Origin: Podarcis vaucheri
Lineage: Eukaryota
Assembly: GCA_965113315.1 (NCBI GenBank)
Contig: OZ220365.1
Strand: one strand, 5' to 3'
DNA length: 64,000 bases
Shown here: piece by piece, positions 1 through 27,070 of the stretch
Numbering within the stretch: position 1 is the first letter of the stretch
Layout of the letters: each line of letters begins with the position of its first letter
Notes under the pieces: model-generated
The model's database searches: none
What the model was told of the DNA's origin: nothing
The model's input: the letters and a program-made list of their open reading frames with translations, nothing else
Translations under genes and position numbers: made by a program

Positions 1-368
1 GACTATGTTTGGCACACACATTATGAACATGACCTTCATCTGGTCAAAAGAGCAGTGAATTCTGCCAGTGCCTTCAGGCCTGGATTTTAGATCTTCCTTA
101 AGTCTACCTTCAGCAAATTACTTCGAGAACCCTGGGGTAGGGAAGCACATTCCTGTCCCAGCCTAAATTTGGGTAGAGCTGTCCAAGTTTGGCCTTGTCT
201 GGACCTGACAACTATAATGTTGCAGGGTGGCAGACAACACTTCCAATAACAGTGGTACTCAATTTGACCTGGGCTGCTTGGTAATTCAATAGATATAGGA
301 GGAGCAGAAGCATTAAGCTGCCTTGGCAGGTCACTGCTCTGTTTTCAAGTCAAGTGACCGCACTACAT

Positions 369-720
369 GTTGGGTTAGCTAGATTGAGATGCATGCAGAA
401 TTGCTGTGAACATAGTAGTAGTAGGAGCCAACTGCTGCCACGCAGGTAAGATTCACCTTCTGCTGTGTGGGCAGGACGGGCCCTCCCCTTACCAGGCCAA
501 TCCCCAATACCAGGCGGGATTGGGCGATTGGCTGAGGTAGGTGGAGATCTCCAGGTATCCAGCCTGGGGAGGATGAAGCCAGCCCGAACTACCAGGAGTC
601 GCCCTGGGATCCGGGGGCTGCGCGCAACCACATAAAAGGTGCCCCCATTTGATGTGGGAGCTGTCATTATTTGTACCCCACCCATCTGACTAGGTTGCGC
701 CAGCCACTCTGGGTGGCTTC
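369..720 (+). mobile_element. Possible LTR fragment
   Basis: Starts TGTTGG; GC-rich; two ATTGG (CCAAT) boxes at ~519-530 and CATAAAAGG at ~631. Confidence 0.25.
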
Positions 721-1944
721 CAGCATTTACAGAAACATAATAAAGCAACAAACATTTTTTTAAAAAACTTTGGTTTTATAACAAAAACCAACCCAAATCT
801 TTTTTGAATGGAAGTTGTGCATAAATGTTCTCATCAAGTAACGTAGTGGCCAGCACAACTTGTCTCTCACTGCAGATGGTGTTTCTGAGTTGTCCCATCC
901 ACCTAGTCATAATGATTTCATAATCATTGTCATTAATACATTGCCAAAGAGGAGGAGAAACTGCATCAGCATTTTCTTTCACACAAAACTTTATTAGCAT
1001 AAAATTTAAATAAGCTTATATATTTAAAATTATGGGAAAGCCATGAAGCAGTGGCAGGTTGTTCAAAATGGTACAGGAAGGTGGTGTTTTAGCCGTGGCT
1101 CATTTTGCAAGACGCCATGAGTAGCATCCAAAGTGGTGCTCGTGACACTAGTGATGCTAGCCTAGCCTCCATCCTCAGAGAAACACGCACAATAGTTCTC
1201 TTTGCTGGACCAAGCATCACTGTCATTTGACAGCTGTCATTGGTGGACTGAGCATTTGCAAATACTGTTTAATGACAATGAATGCCTGCTGGCTGTGGCA
1301 GGGTCACCTGGGAGGATTAACAATGTCTGGGCAATGTGCCCAGGAAATGCCCTGGGAAGATCCAAAGATGCTTGCAAAGAAAAAGGCACTCATTTCAAAA
1401 TAAATCACAAACAAGTGCTTCATAGATGTTGTTACTCCTTAACAAGATTGATGACAGATGAAATCACAACTTATTTGTGTCACATTTTCAATGAACATTA
1501 AGCATTACGAGGACAATCCAGCCAAAGATAAGTTCAGAGAGTTCAACAGGAGTGTTAAGCATGTACCTACATCTTTTCCAAGGAAGACAAGCCGGTCCGG
1601 TCCTACCATTAGTCAGAGTTTAGTAGGTGGCTCAGGCAGATTATTTTGCGTGCCCTGAAAAGGCAACAAATGTCTGCAATTTATTATACTATGGTTGTGA
1701 TTTGACCACCAGGGAAAGGTATTTGTGCTTTTGAGTTTTTCTGCTCAGGTGCCAGAATAACTTAGTGGGCCTTGGGTAGTATGTTCCTTAATCTGTGGCT
1801 AGGGGGTGGGGGTGTGTGGCATTCACAGCTCTGCCTCTGGCAACAAAATGTCTTCGGATGACCCTGAAGTCAAAGGAACTCAAAAGTGCTTACTTTGGCT
1901 GGATCAAACTCCATGTGTATAATACAAAGCCAGGTATGGTTTAC

Positions 1945-2072
1945 CAGTGGAAATGTCGGGTGGAATGGGATTCATTTCACCGTTCACCATCTTGAGGTGC
2001 AACTGCTTGATATTAAATGGTTCCACAGTGAAGGGCAATGTGCCGGTTAGCATGGCAAACATGCTAACTCCT
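1945..2072 (-). CDS. HUNK-like kinase, coding exon 5 (GVSMFAMLTGTLPFTVEPFNIKQLHLKMVNGEMNPIPPDIST); gene continues beyond window start
   Basis: Acceptor CCCTGGCAG|A, donor G|GTAAAC; 128 nt; AMLTGTLPFTVEPF is HUNK-family-typical. No further exon found in 1-1944. Confidence 0.93.
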
Positions 2073-2153
2073 CTGCCAGGGAGAAAGATAGCAACAGTCA
2101 CATCAGTGGAGCAAGAAGAGTTTCATAAAATGCATGTGTGATGCTTGGGAATA

Positions 2154-2373
2154 CAGTGGTACATCGGGTTACATACGCTTCAGGTTACAGACTCCGCTAA
2201 CCCAGAAATAGTACCTAGGGTTAAGAATTTTGCTTCAGGGTGAGAACAGAAATCGTGCTCTGGTGGCACAGTGAGAGGCCCCATTAGCTAAAGTGGTGCT
2301 TCAGGTTAAGAACAGTTTCAGGTTAAGAATGGACCTCCGGAACGAATTAAGTACTTAACCCGAGGTACCACTG
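2154..2373. mobile_element. Tc1/Mariner (Tigger-like) MITE, family A
   Basis: TIRs CAGTGGTAC.../...GTACCACTG, TA TSDs; near-identical to 49561-49802 and 59069-59298. Confidence 0.9.
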
Positions 2374-3351
2374 TACAGTGATAGATTGATGTGTGTTAGC
2401 ATTATATACTTTGTCAACCAAGTTGCTACTATCAGCCAAACTTGATGGTTTCTGCTCACACCCATACACGATAGAATAAGCAAGCAATCTACAAGAATCT
2501 AACTCTAGGCCCTTTCCACACAATTCCACACAAACCTCCACCCCATTACATACTACGTGACTATTTAGAAGCAAGCTGTGCATTTAGTGACTCTTAGAAT
2601 GGAATCTGCCAGTTGTCAATTGTAGAATATGTTTCCTCCCATTCCCCAGCAGTCTTACCTCATCCCACACTGTACAGGAGCCTCTGGCCATCCAAAGAGC
2701 CCCTCAAGGGGGTGCGGTTTAAAAAAAAAAAGTTCCCTAATTTCCTCACATTAACTTAACTTAGGTTCCAAGCCTAAAAGAAACTGCAGCATCAGATTTA
2801 AGACGCTTTGGAGGACTGTAATGTGATTAGCTTTCATCCACCATCAGCTGCATTTACAGAACACCTGTTTTATTCCAGTTTTCATGCCCTCAGTTTCAGA
2901 GGGATGGAAGAGCTGTAGCATGTGACAGTCAATAAATCCCCATGTCTTGTCTGTTTCCAGTCACAAGTCAACCTCACAACTTATTGTTGCTCCCTATTAA
3001 CATCTTGTATACTAACGCCTCTCTCACCCTCAAATTTTCCATGCTTTAGGAATTCCACATTCTGGTAGGGTGTTGAAAAGAGGCCTTGGTAGTCCTAAAA
3101 GCACTCACTTTCATATATCACCAACACCAAGTAATTTAACATATACAATGATTGCAGTGTAAAAATCCAATGCTATGTGAGTCTAGAGATCAAAGTACTC
3201 TTGTTTTTACTCTCTTTGTAAAAATCAAGAAACCCACTTGCCATTCCTGAGGTGCGTTTAACTTCATTTAGTATACTGATGCCTAAAGCTCCAACTAAAT
3301 TTTTCTGTTTCTCTCTCACACACATTTAAAATTAAAATTATCATCTTCGAG

Positions 3352-3919
3352 CATAGCTGTCAAGTGTCCCCTATTTGAAGGGACAGTCCCTTATTCCAGC
3401 GCCATGTCCCGCTGCTGTCCCTTATTGATGGATGTCCCTTAAATGATGTCCCTTAAATTTCATACGAAGCGGCTCCTCTCCCTCCCTGCCGGCCAGGGAG
3501 GAGGGAGGCTCCAACTGTGTTGCTTGGCTGTGTTGCTCACCCAATAAGAAGTCTAAGAACGACTGGGGGGTGGAGCTTGCATGCCTTGTGTGTGGCTAGT
3601 TAATGCAAGCTGAGGGGGGTTTTGAATGCTGGACACCATTTTGTTGCACGTGCTGCTGCAAATTTTGCAGTGCAAAGCCAGGCCAGGGAGCCATCTTAAG
3701 TTGAGGCTGCATAGGCCTTGTGGTGCATGTGATTCAGATTCTATTCAGTTGAACCTCTGGTTACAAAGTTGGTTGGACAGTGTTCTCGAAGCTACCAGCA
3801 TGAGTTTGACCAGACTGCAGGAGGACAGGAAGACTGGAGTGCCTGGAACAGGTGAGGCTGCAGGTCCCTTATTTTGGGTGCTGGTCCCTTATTTTCAAAT
3901 CTGTAAGTTGACAGCTATG
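3352..3919. mobile_element. Non-autonomous hAT element
   Basis: TIRs catagctgtcaa/ttgacagctatg; exact 8-bp TSD tcttcgag (3344-3351, 3920-3927); subterminal GTCCC(TTA) repeats. Confidence 0.92.
3770..3846 (+). mobile_element. Internal BovB fragment inside a hAT MITE
   Basis: GGTTGGACAGTGTTCTCGAAGCTACCAGCATGAGTTTGACC... (WLDSVLEATSMSLTRL) closely matches 58920-58996. Confidence 0.8.
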
Positions 3920-4022
3920 TCTTCGAGGCCCCCATTCTCCTGAACATTGCTGGGATATAATTGATAAATGTAATTCTTGGAGACTGGATGTGACTAGATA
4001 TTATCAGCAATGTAAAAAGAAA

Positions 4023-4060
4023 TATCTGAAGAAGTGTGCATGCACACGAAAGCTTATACC
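4023..4060 (+). ncRNA. Minimal type I hammerhead ribozyme motif (PLE-type)
   Basis: CUGAAGA core 4026-4032, stem II GUGUG/CACAC 4034-4047, GAAA 4048-4051, palindromic AGCU stem III, UH at 4054-4055, stem I UAU/AUA. Confidence 0.65.
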
Positions 4061-4159
4061 CAGGACAAACATAGTTGGTCTCTAAGGTGCTACTGGACAT
4101 TTTTTTATTTTTTTTATTTATTTTGACTGTGTCAGACCAACACAGCTACCTACCTGAAA
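4025..4159 (+). mobile_element. Penelope-like retroelement terminal fragment with hammerhead motif, in kinase intron 4
   Basis: CTGAAGAAGTGTGCATGCACACGAAAGCTTATACCC followed by TAGTTGGTCTCTAAGGTGCTACTGGA; imperfect TSD gtaaaaagaaata (4012-4024) / gtaaaaaagaaata (4160-4173); same sequence family as 26865-27070. Confidence 0.75.
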
Positions 4160-4339
4160 GTAAAAAAGAAATAGTTTGACTTATAAATATCTGAGTTTGT
4201 TTATTTATTTATTTATTTAAGATATCTATACCCCACCCTTCATTATAAAATTCCAGGGCACTGTACAGAATAATTTTTCTTACAGATCCAGATAAAGTAC
4301 ATGTTCGAGTATATGATGTGCATGTAAATTTATTGAATA

Positions 4340-4674
4340 CAGTGGTGCCTCGCAAGACGAAAAGAATCCATTCTGTGATTCTCTTCGTCTAGCGGTTTTT
4401 TCGTCTTGCGAAGCAAGCCCATTGACGGATTAGCGGATTAGCGCTATTAGCGGCTTTTAGCGGCTTATCTGCTGATCGGATCAGCTGATAAGCGGCTTAG
4501 CGGCTTAAAAAAAGGGGGGAAAGGGGAAAAAACCAGCAGGAACTCACAAGACATTGTCGTCTTGCGAAGCAAGCCCATAGGAAATTCGTTTTGCGAAGCA
4601 CCTCCAAAACGGAAAACTCTTTCGTCTAGCGAGTTTTCCGTCTTGCGAGGCATTCGTCTTGCGGGGCACCACTG
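4340..4674. mobile_element. Tc1/Mariner MITE, family B
   Basis: 21-bp TIRs cagtggtgcctcgcaagacga / tcgtcttgcggggcaccactg; TA TSD; internal TTAGCGG repeats. Confidence 0.9.
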
Positions 4675-4813
4675 TACTTTCTTTGTGGGGGAAGAAGGGG
4701 CTGCCAGGGGAATTGTTCAAAATCACAAGCCCATCATTTGCTGGCAGCAGTACCACATGACTAGAACTCTACTAAAGTGCTGTAGGAGCAATAAAATATT
4801 CACAATCTACTTA

Positions 4814-4987
<174 letters not shown>

Positions 4988-6378
4988 TCACACACAAACA
5001 TACATCTTGGGGATATCATTAGAGTTTAGATTGACCAGTTAACCAAAGCGAGCAACATTCTAATCTAAATGAGATTGGTGCAGCCTGTTTTCATATTATA
5101 TCACTCCCCACTTTCTCCTGGATGTCACTAGAGATGGAACAAAGTCCAGGGCGCAGCAGCCCAGTGTCCACTATATGAGGGTGGCAGGTAATGAGGACAG
5201 TGGCAAGTGTGCACCTTTCCAAGTGATGACTCTTCAAAAGTCAACGTGGGCAGCATCTTACCATTCAAAACATGTGAGGAGAAAAAGAGGGGAACGATTG
5301 TTTATAAAAAACATGAAAGCATAGGGCTAAGCAGTGTGGGCTGCCCAGTAGCAACACTTGGTCACTGGTTTCATTTTTGTGAAACATGTCTAACCCAGCT
5401 CCTCTGGAGTTTCTATAGACTGAGGTGGACTTTTGCTTAAAGACTTTTGTTAATATAAAATGTGTTATTTTGGGTATGAGCCTAGTCTGCTCAGTTAATT
5501 TAAACAAGCAGAAAGAGAGTGTGGCAGAATCCTCCCTGGGTACCAGGGGAAATGAGTAATGTATAAACAGGGGGTGGGGAAGGGAAGGCCGCACCAGGGT
5601 CTTTGGCTGTTGATCATGGTGTGCAGTGATGAGTCCATTACCTTGCGCCAGGGCCTGATCTAAGCCCAGCCTGGAGTCCAGAAAACTTTTAGATGTTCAG
5701 AAGCATATTGAGCAAATTAATCTGTTTATTATGGATTCTTTCTGGGGTGTATTGTTGTGATGGTGGGAGAGATGTCCTTACACTCCTAGGTCCTTCTGTC
5801 CAGAGGGCATACATTTATCTCATGTTGAGTATCCTCTGCAGTAGGAGTGGTGATTTTTTTTTTCATCCGCAAGCCTGCATACCCTTGTGGGAAGCTTTCC
5901 AGGGCCACACAACAGTGGTGGCATTGGGTGGGGCCAGAGGCAAAAGTGGAAGTGTTTAGAGGCCCCCCAAAAGAGTGGGTGAAACAAGACCTGTGACTCA
6001 AATCTTTGCGTAGTAAGCTATATTCCAGCCATGCAAAAGTCAGAGGTTTCTATGACAGCCACCCATATCTCTCCACCCAGGCAAGGAAGAAGCACAGTTC
6101 AAAAACACATTCCAGCCAGGCAAGTACATGTGTGAAAGATGTGGTCTGGGGAGAGAAGGGGGTAGCCAGGGGAGTGGGCATGGCTGGGAAGAGTTCTGAG
6201 GTCCTAGCAGAGAGGCCTGTGGGGCCACTCCGAGCCCCCAGCTTTAGGTTCCTCACTCTGGCAACCCACAGACACCATAGCTGTTTATTTGGCCACTAGT
6301 TGTTATGTATAAGTGCAAGGCAACAAAAAAACAATCTCTGCATAAGAGAGTTGTATGTCTGCCATACAGTACACCTAC

Positions 6379-6434
6379 CAACGATTCTGATGTTGTTGTT
6401 TTCATCCAGAAGAAAATTTTCAATCTTCAGATCT
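6379..6434 (-). CDS. HUNK-like kinase, coding exon 3 (DLKIENFLLDENNNIRIV)
   Basis: Acceptor TTTGTTTAG|A, donor G|GTAGGT; 56 nt; completes the catalytic loop HRDLKIEN in phase. Confidence 0.95.
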
Positions 6435-7702
6435 CTAAACAAAGCAGGAGAGAAAGTAAATGTGTTGTGTTGAAATACATGATTGGATCCAGAGTTTCTG
6501 TGAGTAAAATTCCATTCATTGGGCATGGTGGGGAGGTGATTTTAGTCAGTTCAGCATGCAATTCCCTTGGACACTCCAGACGTATGGCAACGCATGTTGG
6601 CAGTGTCGTTTTTGGCGAAAAAGCTCAACAATTTTGGGATTTTCACTTTTTGAAATATGGCAACCCTAGGTTGGCACTGGGGGATGTGGACAGGATGAGA
6701 ATTGGTGGAAATCCAGAGCAAATCTGGATCTAGCGCATAATATTTTGCTCTGCAAATAATGTTAAACTAACCTTTCTGAGTGTAATAACTTAATTGCACT
6801 AGAGCTCCCCAGAGACTTGTTGCCTTATAACAATATTTTCCAGCATAGTATGCAGTTAATGCTGGACCTTGGCACTGAAGTCCAGAAACCTGAAGCCTCT
6901 CCCCCCCCCACCCACCCACCAAGAAAAAATTACCACAGAGTGACATATTATGGGGCAGTGGGAAGCAGGCCTGGGATCAATACCTGGGCTATCACAGGTA
7001 TGCCAGGCCTTAACAGGGACTGATGATGGCTTTCTCTATGAGGCCAGAATTAGACTACAAAGCTCATGTTCCAGGGGGAAGAGAAAGTGGGAGTTTCAGG
7101 AAGGTGAGTTGGAGGAGGGAGAAACCCCCTCAAACTACAAATTGCTGGTGACTTGAACAAACTAATCCCTTCTATCTCTCAACTCCAGTTTAGCACCTGA
7201 GGCAAAAAGTTTCTGCTAGTGGTAGCAGAAGTAGCAGCAGCAGCAGCAATAATAATGATAATAGCAACAACAACCAGAAATTTGCTTCCCTTTCACGGCA
7301 GCCAAAATCAGTTGCCTGAGGTAACTACCTCACACTGCCTAACAGAGGTGCTGACCCTGTGCTCCACATATAATGACCCACTTGTCAAAATGATGGACAT
7401 TTTTGTTTATTCTCCTAATAAATCCCAGTTTGCACTCAAAACCATACTTGTTTACTTTAACGCTGTGTGTGTACACTGAGCTAGCCTGAGACATTTCATT
7501 ACCTGAAGCAGGAAATCCAAATGTTGTGGGGTGTGTTTTCTCTCTCTCTCTCTCCAACAGTAAGGATGTAATAACAAATTAAATGACAAGGTGCCATGCT
7601 TTCATCTGTCCCTTGAGATAATTCACTTCACCCTAATGGTTTCACTGCCTTAAGGCTGCATGGATGCTCTCTGTGAGTATATAATTTGATATTTCTGAAA
7701 TA

Positions 7703-7943
7703 CAGTGGTGCCCCGGTTTAAGAACAGCCCTGTTTATGAACTATTTGGTATACAAACTCTGCAAAACTGGAAATAGTGTTCTGGTTAGCGAAGTTTACCT
7801 CGGTCTACGAATGGAAGCCAAACAGTGGAAGGGCACCGGCGGCAGGAGGCCTCATTAGGGAAAGCGCACCTAAGTTTAAGGACGGTTTCAGCTTAAGAAC
7901 GGACTTCTGGAACAGATTAAGTTCATAAACTGAGGTACCACTG
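7703..7943. mobile_element. Tc1/Mariner MITE related to family A
   Basis: TA|CAGTGGTG ... GTACCACTG|TA; internal similarity to family A. Confidence 0.85.
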
Positions 7944-7950
7944 TATATAC

Positions 7951-8093
7951 CAGGGTGCCCAAACCTTTTTCAAAGATAGCCAGATTTGATGAAGTGAACA
8001 TGTGTGAGTTGTTGGGCTTTTTTAAGGATTGAAGTTGCTGAGGTGTTTTTTTTTTTTAGGATTTTACCCCAAAACGGACTTTGGACATGCCTG
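7951..8093. mobile_element. hAT MITE
   Basis: cagggtgcccaaa / tttggacatgcctg ends; 8-bp TSD gtatatac (7943-7950, 8094-8101). Confidence 0.85.
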
Positions 8094-8247
8094 GTATATA
8101 CATATGGCATAATTGATCAAAGTTAAGCACTTAATAATCCCACTAATTTGAATGGAAGACTTCATCAGATACTTTCATGAAACGAGTGGGGCTGAGTTTT
8201 ATCATGCCCCCTGAAATATAAATCTGAGGGAAGGAAATTTGCTGTAC

Positions 8248-8540
8248 CTGTGGACAATCCCATGATGATGCAAATGTTCTACTGCAGACATTATCTGCCT
8301 GGTATATTTCTTGACTTCCCTTTCTTCCAGTTTCTTTTTCTCGCAGATTCTGTCCATGAGATCTCCCCCTAGGCACAGTTCCATCACCATGTAATAGGAG
8401 TTTTCCGTCTCCAATGTTTCATAGAGCTGAACAATATTGGGATGTTTAATCATCTGATGTATCCTAGGTTCCCGTTTCATATTTTTTAAAACATAGGAGT
8501 CTTGCTTGGCTTTTTTCTTGTCTATGACTTTTATGGCTAC
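8248..8540 (-). CDS. HUNK-like kinase, coding exon 2 (VAIKVIDKKKAKQD...HPNIVQL...HGIVHR)
   Basis: Acceptor TTATTTAG|GTA, donor CACAG|GTACAG; 293 nt; contains VAIK lysine, alphaC Glu, HPNIV and the HR of HRD. Confidence 0.95.
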
Positions 8541-9283
8541 CTAAATAACAAAAATGCTGTCAATACTTTTTTTATAATACAGACAACCCACTTTTCTTTA
8601 GCAGCACAGTGTCAAAGACAAAAACGTATTTTTTATATATATTATTTAGCATTGATGGGATCAAGATGCAGTTTTTCTGCTAGTGGTTTGCATGCTATAA
8701 GTCATAATATTCAATGTCGGTAGCTTTGTAAGTTTTTGATTTCAGTTAATATATGCTAAAATTAGATAATGATATAATGATGATCTAATAATTTGTTCCA
8801 GCAAAAGTGTTCCTTGTACAACACACAGTGGAATGTCTGCACGTACAGACATAAGCTGCCTCCCAAATTCTACACTTCTGTTAGATAACTTGAATGTTGA
8901 ATTTCTCAAGGAAGATAAGCAGTGTATCCATCAACACATTTACAAAATTTAGGTGAACCGCCACTTCAGATACTCAGAATCAAATAGGAATCGAACAAGT
9001 TTCATTGGTATCACGAATAGGAAAACAGTGATTCATAAAAGTTAGGAAAAACATCTAATTATACACACAACATACCTAACACAGTAATATTAACATATTA
9101 GATCTGGTGCAATATTCCAGAGCATGATAGCATATATATATTACTATTATGGGCATTGCTGCTTCAGCTAAATAAAGCACCAGGTTGCAGATGAAGAAAC
9201 AAAGCCCTAAACTTCTTCAGCATACATCACCATGAAATTAGTGGCAAACATTCCTCACTCTGTTCTTGCCACTCTCCATTTAC

Positions 9284-9529
9284 CTTCTCCCCAGTGGGGA
9301 TGTGAAAGCCCTCCATCACTTTGGCAAAGGAGCCCTTGTTGATCATTTTGCCCACTAGGTAATTCCCAACTTGCTTGGTATGGGGGAAATTCTTCCTAGA
9401 CTCTTGGGACATCTTGCTGAAACAAACAGGTATATCCCTATGGCTTGTCCCCCACTCTGGTAATATCCTTTCCTGGTTTGCATGATCCATTCCTCTGTCA
9501 TCTGGAGCAGCTTTGATTGCCGCAGGCAT
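9284..9529 (-). CDS. HUNK-like Ser/Thr kinase, coding exon 1 (MPAA...VGNYLVGKMINKGSFAKVMEGFHIPTGEK)
   Basis: ATG at 9529 gives MPAA, as in HUNK; kinase subdomain I; 246 nt, phase 0; donor AAG|GTAAAT at 9284/9283. Clearly divergent from HUNK itself, so no symbol given. Confidence 0.9.
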
Positions 9530-10000
9530 CCCTGGGGGAGTGAGACTGGCTGGTTGCACCCCAGTTCCCGAAGACTGCTGCTTTCCAGAGGCAACACAGA
9601 ATGGTTAACAGATTCTGTGCCTGTAGGTCTCGAGGTACAATGGCCAAGTCGTTGGCCGCGCCGTGTGTGATCATCCTCCCTTGGAGGCTAGTTTTTCATC
9701 ACTGATCTCTATCTGCCGGCATGCAGGCCTGCTCAAGCAGAACCAAGCTGGAGATTATTAACCTAACCTGATACACAATGTCAATTAATGCCCCAGAACT
9801 GACAGCTCCGATGTCACATAATCTCATGGAACAAACCCTTCCCATTTACAGAGGCCAACATTAGCACCAAGAGCTCTGTTCACCAGCCCTGAACACCAAT
9901 CAGCTAAATTAGAGTGTCGCTCGCTTTACCTGTATTTCCAGAGATAAATAGCGCGTCCACTCCTCGTGTAAAGGCATCAGGGTATCTCAAGTGAACGCAG
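9530..10000 (-). promoter_or_regulatory. Probable 5' UTR / proximal promoter of the HUNK-like gene
   Basis: Positional only: repeat-free sequence directly upstream of the ATG with a few CpGs; no TSS or CpG island can be demonstrated. Confidence 0.35.
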
Positions 10001-10402
10001 AGTTTAGTTAAACAGAAGGTGGTGCTAGCATGTGTTCAGAATGGCTTGACCCCAATGTGCTGCTGGTCTTCTGCCCTCATCCACCTCAAGAATCCTCTGG
10101 GGAACTGCACTCTCACCTCACACTGGCTGAGAGATTCATGCTGTTCTCCCGGATGCCCATGAACTCATTAACTGATTCATACCTCTTAGTAATCGCTGGG
10201 AACAAACTACACATGATGTTAACTGCATGGCTTGCAATCACATTTCCGCCCCTTTATTCCAGTGGGTTGAACGTCCCATTTTCATGTGCTTTGTTCACAA
10301 TGAACATCACATTGATCACCCCCCACAAAGGGGGTTGGGGGTGGAATGATAAAGAGATCGCAAACAAGACAATTAAACCCTCAGGCCCTATCTGTGCTCT
10401 AC

Positions 10403-10430
<28 letters not shown>
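10403..10430. repeat. (ATTG)7 microsatellite
   Basis: Perfect array next to the SINE tail. Confidence 0.95.
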
Positions 10431-10434
<4 letters not shown>

Positions 10435-10439
10435 AAGTA

Positions 10440-10580
10440 ATAGAATTGTAGAGTTGGAAGGGACCACAAGGGTCATCTAGGCCAACCCCTGCAATACAGG
10501 AATTGTTTGCCCAATGCGGGACTTGAACCCACAACCCTGAGATTAAGAGTCTCATGCGCTACCGACTGAGCTATCCCAGG
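10440..10580 (-). mobile_element. tRNA-Lys(CTT)-derived SINE with CR1-type 3' tail
   Basis: Minus strand GGATAGCTCAGTCGGTAGCGCATGAGACTCTTAATCTCAGGGTTGTGGGTTCAAGTCCC (10580-10508) followed by GGTTGGCCTAGATGACCCTT..GGTCCCTTCCAACTCTACAATTCTA (CR1 3' end). Confidence 0.85.
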
Positions 10581-11692
10581 AGATATTTAAATCAGGGTCA
10601 TTCTACTTTAAACAAACACAGCTCCCCGGGAACTGGGTGGAGGATAGAGGGGTGTGTGCAAGTGTAGGAACGTAGTCTCCGGTGCTTCATCCCCTTTTGC
10701 CTATGGCTCCACACACCAATGGCATGTGCTCCCCTCCAGAAGGTTGAATGGAAGAGAATGTGGCCTTTCCCACCATGGACCTATTCTTGGTGTTTGCACG
10801 CTCCCCACCATGCTCCTTGGTTTGAGAAACACTCGGCAGATCCACAGCATACATTCAAAGCACATTCATGTACAAGAAATCCCGGGAACTGTCACTTGCA
10901 AAGAGTACATGAATGCAGTGTAGTTTGTAGAGGCTCTGTGAGGGCCGAGGCACTGCAGTGCCAGGATTTTTTGAGGGAAGTCATGTGCATTAAATGTATG
11001 CTGCGGATCAGTCCATTCTTCAAGCAAAACAATCACTCACAAATGAAAGGACCATGAGGGAGTGGTGGCTTCTCCTACACATTCTTCCACCCCTTCTAGC
11101 GCCACCTAATCCATTTGCTACTCTTCTGAAAACCAAAGTAAAAAAGACGATGGATGCAAATAGTACCAGTTAATAAAGACAAAAAACCAAACACAGCATG
11201 AAATAGAACCCCCCATATTTTTTGACACATTTCAAAAGAAATCCAGGGAGTGGGGTGGAAGCTTCCTTAAATACAGAACAAACTTTAAAACATGATACAC
11301 AGCTAAACTAACTATTGCTATGTTTGGGGAAGAGCCCAATCTGACACCTGGGAGGGGGGAACCTGACATTGCACACACTGCCAAATATTTTTAAAGCCCT
11401 TTTTTTTTTGTTTAGAACACGAGAGGCTTCAAAAGGAACAAATAAAAATGAACAAATATGCCAAAAGCAGCAAAACTCAGCATTGGGGAGTATATTACAG
11501 GATGAATACAGACCAGTTAATGAGGAAATGCTACAGAAGAATCATGCAGCTCAAAATCAAATGCAACAATGATCACATTATTCTTAGAGAGGGGCCTGAC
11601 CAGATTTAAACAGGTACAACAGACATTCCTTCTTCCCAAAGAGTCTTGGAGGTTGTAGCCCTGCAAAGGGAGCTAAGGAACCATAACAGGGA

Positions 11693-12108
11693 TCCGAGAC
11701 CAGGGAGAAGAGTCGGTGGAAGAAGATTGGAAGAAGTTTAAAGACTATTTACAGAAATATTGTAAAATTAATGAATGTTAGAATGATGTTGGATAGAAAT
11801 CAAGGGGTTTTCAGCTGTAATACTATAAAGGAATATGAAAAATGGATTATTAATAGGTAAAAATTTAATGTTACAATAGCTTAAGATTAAAGACTAGGAT
11901 AAACAAAGAGGGGAAGGATTTGCTGAACCAACAAACTGAACTGGAATACAAAAAAGGGAGGCGTGAGGAGGTCCGGGAAATAAGCTAATGAAAAATAAGT
12001 AATGGAAAGAATGAGTTGTTTTTAACTATTTTTATTTTGTATTTTTTTACTTTTTATTTTTATTTTGTAATACTTTGAAAATTTTAATAAATATCTTATA
12101 AAGAAAAA
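11693..12108 (+). mobile_element. 5'-truncated L1-type LINE 3' end
   Basis: 18-bp TSD aaggaaccataacaggga (11675-11692, 12109-12126); C-terminal peptide EEDWKKFKDYLQKYC*; AATAAA followed by A-rich tail. Confidence 0.8.
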
Positions 12109-19470: not shown

Positions 19471-20285
19471 CACCTTGATAAGATGGTATATCTGTATGAA
19501 CCCATTACCTTCAGAGCCCAGTGACTGATTGGCCCAAGCCTGATCCAGGTAAAGGGGATCATGGTTTATGGGGGTTGTGTGCCTCCTGCAAGGCAGGAGC
19601 CTGAACTGGAGGATGGGGAGGGGTCTGATAAGTCAGAGGTGGTGGAGGAAGGACAGGACATGCCTGGAGCTGAGGGAGAGACAGTGCCCGAAGAAGGGGG
19701 AAGAATCCCACCCGTTCCCTCTTTCTCTGTCTCCTGGACCAGGAAGGGCTTCAAGAGGCAGGCACAGCAAAAACTTCCATGTAGGAGGAATTGCAGGTTG
19801 CTTGCACTTGTGCTGTCAGGCAAAGGTACTTGAATTTGGGCTAGAGGTGTGGCCACCCATTGCTCCAACAGTCCAGCTCAGAGCATAAGCCCAGGGAGGG
19901 GCACCAGCTACCTAGCCACCAGAAGCACGTGTGTTTCGTGCATCTTAGAAGCAGGGGTGGGTTTAGATGAAGAGAGGCCCTAGGCTCCTCTGCTTGTGAG
20001 GCCCCTCCCCATCCCCACCCTCATGACTAGAAGAAAATAGAAGAGTGTAATAAACAAAATTGTGTGAAGCCAAGGATGATGACGGGTATTTAAAATTCTG
20101 CAATTCACAATTTCTGCTCTAAAAGACGTAAGATGTTATTGTTAAATACCATGGTCATTAAAAAAAATGCATAAAATTAACACTGAAAAACATTTGCAAT
20201 AGCTGAACTTTGTGAACATTTTGTGGAATAAGCATTATTTTTTAGGAAAATGAAGTTGTAATGTTATCCTGGGCAGGCCTCAGGC

Positions 20286-20529
20286 AATCTCATCCTTTAT
20301 TTCCACACTGTGTCTGCAGACCAAAGCATTCGTCAGGAGAGCTGTGAGATTCAGGTGAGGGTTAGATGCCTTGTCAATCCCAGCAGGTATATAACAGGAT
20401 GGGCAGGCCGGGTCTTCCTGTTATATACCTGCTGGGATTGACAAGGCATCTAACCCTCACCTGAATCTCATAGCTCTCCTGACGAGTGCTTTGGTCTGCA
20501 ACCACAGTGTGGAAATAAAGGATGAGATT
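20286..20529. repeat. Long inverted repeat, 114-bp arms, 16-nt spacer
   Basis: 20286-20399 is the reverse complement of 20416-20529 with 4 mismatches. Confidence 0.95.
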
Positions 20530-22119
20530 TCCCACCAGGCACTCTACTATTCAAATTAGGCCCCAGTGTTTTTGTTACAATCCCCTTCTCAATTAAGTAA
20601 TCGATTTTAATCTAGAATTCATATTCTCAAAACTTTCTTATTTGTTAATTCGAGCAAGTAAACTACTGCTTTCACTTCATTACAAACAGTATTTCTATCT
20701 GCAACACACTTGAGCAAACCTGCTCCTCTTCCTTTCACATATATTTTGTTGCCATTTGCAACTGTAGCTGTCTGTGATTCGTTATCATTTAACTCTTGGG
20801 GAAAATAATTAGCATCACAAGTCATGTGCATGGAAGTTGCCGAACCAATTAACTAACTAGAAGGATTACTTTTAATAGCATCAGTTTTCCTATAACTTGA
20901 TGTTGCTGGATAGTTCTGATGTATGCCTTGCTCTTCCCAGGCCTCCTCTCTTTTGGCCTGTATTTTAGAGCTTTATAATTAGGAAAACTTTGGAAGAACT
21001 GGTTGATAAGTCTTACAGGCACTGACGTATGAGCAGATTTTATTTGCTGCTATTTTGGGCTTCTGGTGCACCAGGGTTTACACCAGTGTAATAGAGTTGG
21101 CCAGGGTGCCAGAAGGGATACAATTTATGAGCTTTCTCCATTATCTGCACAGCAGGGGGTGTTCAGTCAACAGTGCAAAGGCTGAGCTGAAGCATTCTCT
21201 GCTGGCTACCTGCTTTCAGCAACAGGGGTCGCTGTTTGGTAGTACCCAATTGGTACTACCCAATTGTCAGATTCTAGAGCTTCCTATTGGTGGCTCTTAG
21301 GTAATTCACAAAACACAGAGTCCATTCATAAAACACAGTATTCATTCATAAAGCAGTAACATAAATATCCATTGCTACATATTGGGTGCATATTTCAGTG
21401 GTTGAACGTACAGGTTTATGACCATGCTGTCGTGTAGTGCTTATGCAACTGTGAATAAAAGATGACTGGGCTCATTGTCTGGGGGTTTGGGGGGGAGAGG
21501 TAGCAAAACTGATTTACAATAAGTGCCCCCCCTTATTTCCATAACAAGTCCTTGAGTCTGTACTCTGAATAGTGACACCAAGGACCTTCTCAGTCCAACC
21601 CCTGCATAGTCTCATCAGGGCTGACCTTAAGGCAATTGGAGCAATTTGGCCAAATTGGGCCACTCCAAAATGCCCCCCCCCGCACCAAGGCAATCTAGAT
21701 GGATTTTATTTATATCTATAAGATTTTGCAGACTTTGGCTGTGAACTGGGGCCCTACAAAAAAATAATAATCAAGATGTGCCCCACTGCTTCAAATTGGG
21801 CCCCCTGGCTAGCCCCGAGTCTCATAGTTGCTGGGCCTGAGTTGCCCTGCCCTTGCAGGAAGTCTTGGGTTTGCAATTTTGGGAGAGGGGAGACTCCTCG
21901 CTAGGGATTGGGTGGGCTGGCGAAGCCCCCTAGATTTAGAGGCCATGGGCTTCAGCCTACTTAGCCTATACATAAATCCAGCACTGCTTACAAGGTACTG
22001 TTAGTTCATGCTTTGCCAGTAAAGAATTAAACTACGAGCCTTTTGTTCTCCTTTGGCTGGGTGTGCTCAGCCAAAGACTGAGCTAATCTTTCAGGTATCC
22101 TGGTCTCCCAAATTCATAC

Positions 22120-26864: not shown

Positions 26865-27070
26865 TAGATTCAGGTAGGTAGCTGTGTTGGTCTGACACAG
26901 TCAAAATATATAAAAAATAAAAAAATTGTCCAGTAGCACCTTAGAGACCAACTAAGTTTGTTCTGGGTATAAGAAGAAGAGTGTATGCACACAAAAGCTT
27001 ATACCCAGAACAAACTTAGTTGGTCTCTAAGGTGCTACTGGACATTTTTTTATTTTTTTATATATTTCAG
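26865..27070. mobile_element. Penelope-like inverted (palindromic) insertion with degenerate hammerhead
   Basis: 47-bp perfect inverted arms 26927-26973 / 26998-27044; exact 12-bp TSD ccattattgtgt at 26853-26864 and 27071-27082. Confidence 0.8.

Follow-up and report, generated by a model that had tools for sequence, protein, structure and literature searches.

A 135-bp Penelope-like stub, likely Neptune-type and likely copied from uncut RNA, opens with a minimal type I hammerhead motif

Minimal hammerhead ribozymes (min-HHRs) are known from Neptune elements of fish, and from turtle and snakes, and in the available text of the work describing them (Cervera and de la Pena 2014, PMC4209133) single minimal hammerheads stay uncleaved in vitro and dimers are weakly cleaved. 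The role of these hammerheads in Penelope-like elements (PLEs) is stated as unclear in PMC8557442, the accessible part of which also gives a CX2-5CXXC-type linker as the mark of Neptune and Nematis PLEs. For PAc (Poseidon_Ac) of Anolis carolinensis, the available portion of Frangieh et al. (2024, PMC11167929) reports that reverse transcription starts internally, that uncut RNA is the main substrate and that the ribozyme cuts only with protein present. A TATA-less internal promoter is described for Penelope of D. virilis (PMC2377424, in part), and L1 work has taken an untemplated G as a copied cap (PMC9341517, likewise). PLE hammerheads are already published, and PMC3846280 describes TATA motifs, initiator motifs, inverted copies, tails and solo pLTRs alike.

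The window analyzed here, a stretch of 64,000 nucleotides from Podarcis vaucheri contig OZ220365.1, carries on its plus strand a motif that, judged by its sequence features, is a real minimal type I hammerhead and a predicted ribozyme, as the preliminary description had claimed. The 5′ strand of stem I, UAU (4023-4025), provides three of the family’s four pairs and is followed by the core box CUGAAGA (C3 to A9, 4026-4032) and an extra unpaired A (4033) of the kind described in the available text of PMC4209133. Stem II (4034-4047) then pairs GUGUG (4034-4038) with CACAC (4043-4047) across a CAUG loop, giving 5 bp closed by G10.1-C11.1 right after the extra base, and stem and loop together form a perfect palindrome of 14 nt. 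GAAA (4048-4051), GC, U16.1 (4054) and U17 (4055) complete the core, such that sequence inspection and descriptor alike find both the CUGANGA and GAAA boxes and the U16.1-H17 step; the palindromic 15.2-16.2 segment, AGCU (4051-4054, A15.1-GC-U16.1), replaces stem III. The predicted cut falls after 4055 and the 3′ strand of stem I, AUAC, occupies 4056-4059, with C4059 left without a partner G in this copy, so that stem I, which in min-HHRs spans 4-5 bp, measures 3 bp here and 4 bp in the family. Stem II, the AGCU segment and the cut position proposed earlier all agree with the sequence, save that the closing string AUACCC ends at 4061 and not at 4060; the consensus stem I expected then, GGGUAU/AUACCC, gives way upon comparison of sister copies to AGUGUAU...AUACC(A/C), with four contiguous GUAU/AUAC pairs.

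A strict min-HHR descriptor, composed after the motif had been seen and requiring the core, a stem II of at least 4 bp, a palindromic 15.1-16.1 segment and a stem I of at least 3 bp, matches the window once, at this very motif, and finds any match in 1 of 300 dinucleotide shuffles. By comparison, the loose pattern CTGANGAN{1,30}GAAA yields 13 matches vs. 6.5 expected, a count reached in 2 of 100 shuffles. An Rfam scan of window positions 1-12000 at E<=10 returned six matches, none of them a hammerhead, and the folding energy of the motif is ordinary (z -0.51); neither result is surprising, because the motif is so small. In the covariation check the stems were identical throughout the sampled subfamilies.

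The motif belongs to a large family with two subfamilies relevant here, a young one and that of the window copy. A first look at the genome gave 2,990 candidates for the stub, 40 of which were scored; exact patterns match 14,421 times for the young subfamily and 1,241 times for the window’s own, and a 20-mer adjoining the hammerhead and common to both has 16,816 exact matches, all totals in which inverted pairs count twice, with reversed-pattern controls returning none. Locus L007, 93% identical to the window copy, extends upstream into a GIY-YIG frame whose Pfam E value (0.00027) lies just under the cut-off, whereas in P0001, a 635-residue frame from L058, the Pfam cut-offs are cleared both by RVT_1 (E 2.4e-12) and by GIY-YIG (E 3.4e-5). 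In sister loci reverse transcriptase (RT) and, at the C terminus, a GIY-YIG endonuclease share a single frame on the hammerhead’s strand, the window being devoid of the coding part, and a hammerhead core lies downstream on the same strand in 26 of the 30 loci retrieved with the frame’s 3′ end. These links uphold the PLE origin suggested before, and on its predicted proteins the element is an endonuclease-positive PLE. Its clade is likely Neptune, given that the linker between RT and endonuclease in P0001, CNKPRCQLC, is of the form CX4CXXC and fits the CX2-5CXXC test for Neptune, a motif also found in Nematis.

The full-length arrangement is seen in L076, where a pLTR, an open frame of 921 codons and a second pLTR follow one another in tandem; the family further displays inverted 5′ copies and an optional tail, which together with the tandem layout of the pLTRs are hallmarks of endonuclease-positive PLEs, and in long copies the hammerhead sits in the pLTR ~190 bases past the RT and GIY-YIG frame. 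No full-length copy of the window’s own subfamily was found, and this subfamily lacks the ATG at +101. Copies of the young subfamily at L044-L060 are 99.4-99.9% identical and keep long open frames, the picture of a recent burst. The window itself holds a second occurrence of the family at 26869-27067, a head-to-head inverted pair in which both arms lack the CUGA box and one carries the tail.

The window copy is a solo PLE stub of 135 bp (plus strand, 4023/4025-4158), corresponding to element positions +5/+7 to ~+140 as counted from the predicted transcript start (+1), and it has neither promoter nor coding frame. It is 93-96% identical to L007 and L002 and 81% identical to the full-length arrangement of L076, and family matches stop at 4158. 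Flanking it are a left target-site duplication of 13 A-rich bp (4012-4024), the final two bases of which also match the element as microhomology, and a right one of 14 bp (4160-4173) with one A more. Its 3′ part (4100-4158) is, by eye, a T-rich tract followed by the optional tail of ~35 bp, as also described in the accessible parts of PMC11167929 and PMC8557442; across the family, 3′ ends fall by eye into two classes, one closing with the T tract and the other with the tail. The insertion lies within a minus-strand intron of 2,742 bp (2073-4814) with GT-AG ends, ~650-790 bases from the donor site. The minus-strand exons around it encode a Ser/Thr kinase (Pfam Pkinase) related to AMPK and MARK, with CIPK, MARK and AMPK as its best solved relatives, and the gene is one that we take to be HUNK-like; the antisense orientation of the motif with respect to the kinase, noted in the preliminary description, accordingly holds. 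The same intron also contains, at 4337-4677, a short element whose terminal inverted repeats enclose a hairpin and which by eye resembles a non-autonomous DNA transposon.

To read where copies begin, positions were counted from +1, which places C3 at +8, the cut after +37 and, in the tandem arrangement, the first ATG at +101, 93 bases past C3. A TATA box stands at -30 in L076 and L007, an initiator-like TCAGT spans +1, and L081 begins exactly at +1, seven bases before C3. Junctions were taken from arms sampled in genome order, the sole requirement being an anchor located downstream of the cut: of the first 100 places listed for the young subfamily 93 gave an arm, and of the first 100 listed for the window’s subfamily 74 did. 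Among the young arms, 28 begin far upstream, 39 between -2 and +7, 25 between +8 and +34, none between +35 and +40 and one later; the corresponding numbers for the window’s subfamily are 13, 23, 27, 6 and 5. The edge of the core is the commonest 5′ end in the family, with ends piling up 1-7 bases ahead of it. The window copy, whose first element base falls at +5 to +7 and whose +4 G is gone, is one such case: its junction at the core, leaving a 3-bp stem I, is confirmed by the target-site duplication, but is no peculiarity of this insertion.

The cut site is spanned by 92 of the 93 young arms and 63 of the 74 arms from the window’s subfamily (155/167 together). Genome-wide, filtered junctions number 3,151 over the nine positions 0 to +8 vs. 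275 over the eleven positions +34 to +44, a density per position ~14-fold higher at the start, which is approximate as the filters (BBB, VVV), through which about a third of foreign flanks pass, and the anchors differ between the two. Within the +34 to +44 class (98 arms classed of the first 100 listed, one apparently having been lost to the duplicate filter), target-joined arms show no peak at the cut site and are evenly spread, with 1 of 18 at +38. Inverted joins do peak there (13/68), five of them by script, and a sixth by eye, being explained by the ATAC common to both stem I strands, and +38 is the top bin overall with 17 of the 98 arms, the other bins holding 3-12. A small fraction of cleaved templates is possible, and cleaved element RNA might even be abundant and simply remain unintegrated; the integrated copies, in turn, likely derive overwhelmingly from RNA spanning the cut site, with the stubs likely running from the transcript start to an internal start of reverse transcription on uncut RNA.

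This distribution also bears on the notion of the stub as a non-autonomous unit, akin to a retrozyme or a SINE, that spreads via ribozyme-cut circular RNA, for which pLTR-related retrozyme monomers described in vertebrates (bioRxiv 10.64898/2026.07.22.740005, available text) offer a precedent. Circularized units would start at +38, yet nearly all sampled arms run across the cut; no tandem array surrounds the stub, the window contains one full motif, and the stubs carry no promoter. In a few RNA reads element sequence does jump back to +1 or +4, at the predicted start rather than at the cut site. We consider such a unit very unlikely, and membership among the non-LTR retrozymes was rejected on the missing tandem units and on ends that fall elsewhere than the cut site, both in the spanning arms and in the flat target-joined class.

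The base preceding the copies provides a further clue to the RNA that was copied. Before +4 starts it is G in 514 cases and A or C in 310, so that G is roughly fourfold more frequent than assumed base frequencies would predict, and a preceding G accompanies 10 of 17 +4 starts vs. 6 of 47 starts further downstream. Split by partner, the G is seen before the +4 start in 7 of 8 copies joined to target DNA and in 11 of 19 joined to element sequence, the small number of the former reflecting an over-strict classifier of target joins, by which even the window’s own copy is not listed as target-joined; in one of the seven the G falls within the target duplication and another is perhaps a 1-bp deletion. 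Many of the G rows are compound joins, where the base could be templated. The extra G is likely a copied cap. A search of main texts, in a literature collection with few subscription journals, found no published cap or start-site stub signature in PLEs.

Both the 5′ pile-up and the extra G could instead result from the reverse transcriptase stopping or folding back once the hammerhead has been copied, with stem I of the cDNA pairing to itself and templating the G, an explanation that we judge unlikely and that would leave the identity of the insertion as a PLE stub unchanged. Inverted joins are indeed frequent (55 of 93 young arms are flagged), some display GTAT/ATAC microhomology, and the first base added by fold-back would be a G, which the cDNA could acquire by folding back on its stem I for one base; by eye, a T precedes GG in about half of 100 rows, as a longer fold-back in the young subfamily predicts. 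Against this, a two-base fold-back predicts GGG in the CCC subfamily, where it is found in none of five target-joined copies, and if the hairpin stalled the enzyme, the halt should come on the hairpin’s 3′ side. The TATA box at -30 and the TCAGT at +1 suit a Pol II start, and recurrent inverted arms end exactly at +1. We retain a transcript start as the likely source of the 5′ junctions.

As to activity, 74 of the 93 young arms and 41 of the 74 arms of the window’s subfamily are in register, with the whole motif intact in 50/74 and 9/41, respectively. The AGCU region (+33 to +36) is changed in at most one or two of 115 arms per position, H17 is C in 63 of the 74 young arms and U in the window copy, and the CpG formed by C11.1 and the catalytic G12 is altered in 21 of the 41 arms of the window’s subfamily, which indicates neutral decay. 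In two-molecule predictions the stem II palindrome pairs far more strongly than AGCU (-25.2 vs. -2.5 kcal/mol), so dimerization need not proceed through AGCU. Several inverted pairs are centered on the stem II palindrome that they share, six young arms starting at +16.

RNA reads came from four raw runs carrying the same species label, possibly from a close relative, and were mapped to L076; the libraries are fragmented and cannot show ends. Coverage stays within the pLTR and leader, with the coding frame nearly bare, and 88-96% of the mapped reads continue into unlike sequence, in both mate orientations, which implies that stubs ride as passengers in host RNA. The mapping lists no pile-up at the cut site, which with fragmented reads weighs neither for nor against cleavage. 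The reads mostly show C at position 17. Within L076:443-635, some reads (7 in one run, 12 in another) pass from position 635 directly to +1, and others from 508 or 523 to +4 across one intervening G; these are probably tandem genomic stubs, though possibly circles.

The window copy itself is likely a passenger, inert at its locus, as its sequence provides neither promoter nor partner copy and lacks one of the four stem I pairs. That it could instead be a working ribozyme with a host role, one that as a dimer or with assistance cuts RNA transcribed antisense to the kinase at this locus, seems to us extremely improbable. Core, stem II and AGCU are all intact here, in a subfamily where the sampled arms seldom keep the whole motif, and host RNA does carry family stubs in both mate orientations; with 4-7% divergence from its sisters, though, an intact core is explicable by chance. 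Stem I is three A-U pairs long, position 17 is U, the promoter is missing, and the hammerhead fold is predicted at -3.8 kcal/mol, the best fold reaching -5.6 kcal/mol. Within the window, the closest other copy of the family is 22.7 kb away and lacks the CUGA core, and single minimal hammerheads showed no in vitro cleavage in the available text of PMC4209133. A special role for this copy is not supported: it is one of thousands, with G12 or its neighbor decayed in about half of its sister arms.

We are accordingly quite confident in describing the locus as a 135-bp Neptune-type PLE stub that opens with a minimal type I hammerhead, with an origin by reverse transcription from the first ~140 bases of uncut RNA likely and present-day inertness likely as well. 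We propose that Pol II would start at about +1 to +4, with the hammerhead leading the RNA; that the element protein, as in the Anolis PLE, may nick AT-rich DNA and prime reverse transcription inside the RNA, at the end of the T tract or tail; and that reverse transcription would run off the RNA 5′ end to leave a stub with a target duplication, again following the Anolis work. Most templates would stay uncut if the ribozyme is slow or depends on a partner copy or the element protein. At the present locus, a copy on the strand opposite to the kinase pre-mRNA and devoid of promoter, partner and full stem I would be expected to leave the host gene unaffected.

A bolder and rather doubtful extension is that a hammerhead at the very start of a capped PLE transcript serves as a decapping switch instead of producing the template for transposition. 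Uncut RNA would be translated and reverse-transcribed up to the cap, giving the thousands of +1 to +4 stubs with an extra G; cutting could be triggered by two RNAs meeting through the 14-nt stem II palindrome or by binding of the element protein; and the cut would free a capped piece of 34-37 nt and silence the message, in a form of negative feedback.

Two other features of the window deserve mention. A head-to-head pair of another repeat family at ~20280-20540 (415 first-look candidates) has a 5′ end that looks fixed, a motif resembling a TATA box and, around two small hairpins, a hammerhead-like CUGAYGA...GAAA-UA core, with a possible flanking AAUCUCAU/AUGAGAUU stem; CUGAYGA is retained in 11 of 20 loci, tblastn with the Neptune-type protein gave no match to the repeat, and L363 contains no clear frame. 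From its sequence this repeat may be a hammerhead variant of another element. On the minus strand, Rfam matches 10516-10573 to a tRNA model at 39 bits, covering positions 8-63 of the model’s 71; the stretch is probably either a repeat of tRNA origin or a pseudogene.

The locus is in itself of little weight, being one dead stub among thousands. The family, however, is young, abundant and of Neptune type, and its junctions record which RNA was copied: they speak against a cut-and-circularize model, agree with the Anolis in vitro result and extend the uncut-template finding from Poseidon to a Neptune-type element, whose candidate promoter, start site and leader can now be named.

Set beside described systems, as far as the available portions of the respective sources go, the family is closest in motif to the min-HHRs of metazoan PLEs (PMC4209133), with which it shares the core boxes, the extra base and G10.1-C11.1 as well as a 4-bp stem I, a tiny palindromic stem III, the pLTR location and mostly single dispersed copies. 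It differs in a 5-bp stem II whose loop completes the 14-nt palindrome and, in the window copy, in a 3-bp stem I; the circular-RNA model of that work predicts ends at the cut site, whereas the genomic copies here show otherwise. Non-LTR retrozymes (bioRxiv 10.64898/2026.07.22.740005) are similarly short, protein-free, hammerhead-bearing, pLTR-related and dispersed as monomers, but consist of tandem units with a hammerhead each, while here a single stub with a target duplication is continuous with an autonomous element. The anatomy of endonuclease-positive PLEs (PMC3846280, PMC8557442) is likewise reproduced, from the pLTR with TATA and initiator-like motif and the inverted 5′ copies to the optional tail of 30-40 bp, the target duplications and the solo pLTRs; stubs starting at the initiator and the extra G are seen here and are absent from the descriptions in the accessible text of these two sources. 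PAc of Anolis (PMC11167929) belongs to the Poseidon clade and has its start codon within the ribozyme, whereas the CX4CXXC linker points here to Neptune or Nematis and the first ATG, 63 bases past the cut site, leaves the ribozyme entirely in the 5′ leader. The two are nevertheless alike in combining RT with GIY-YIG, in a hammerhead at the pLTR-ORF junction, in two 3′ end classes set by the tail, in an AT-rich target and in an uncut RNA template.
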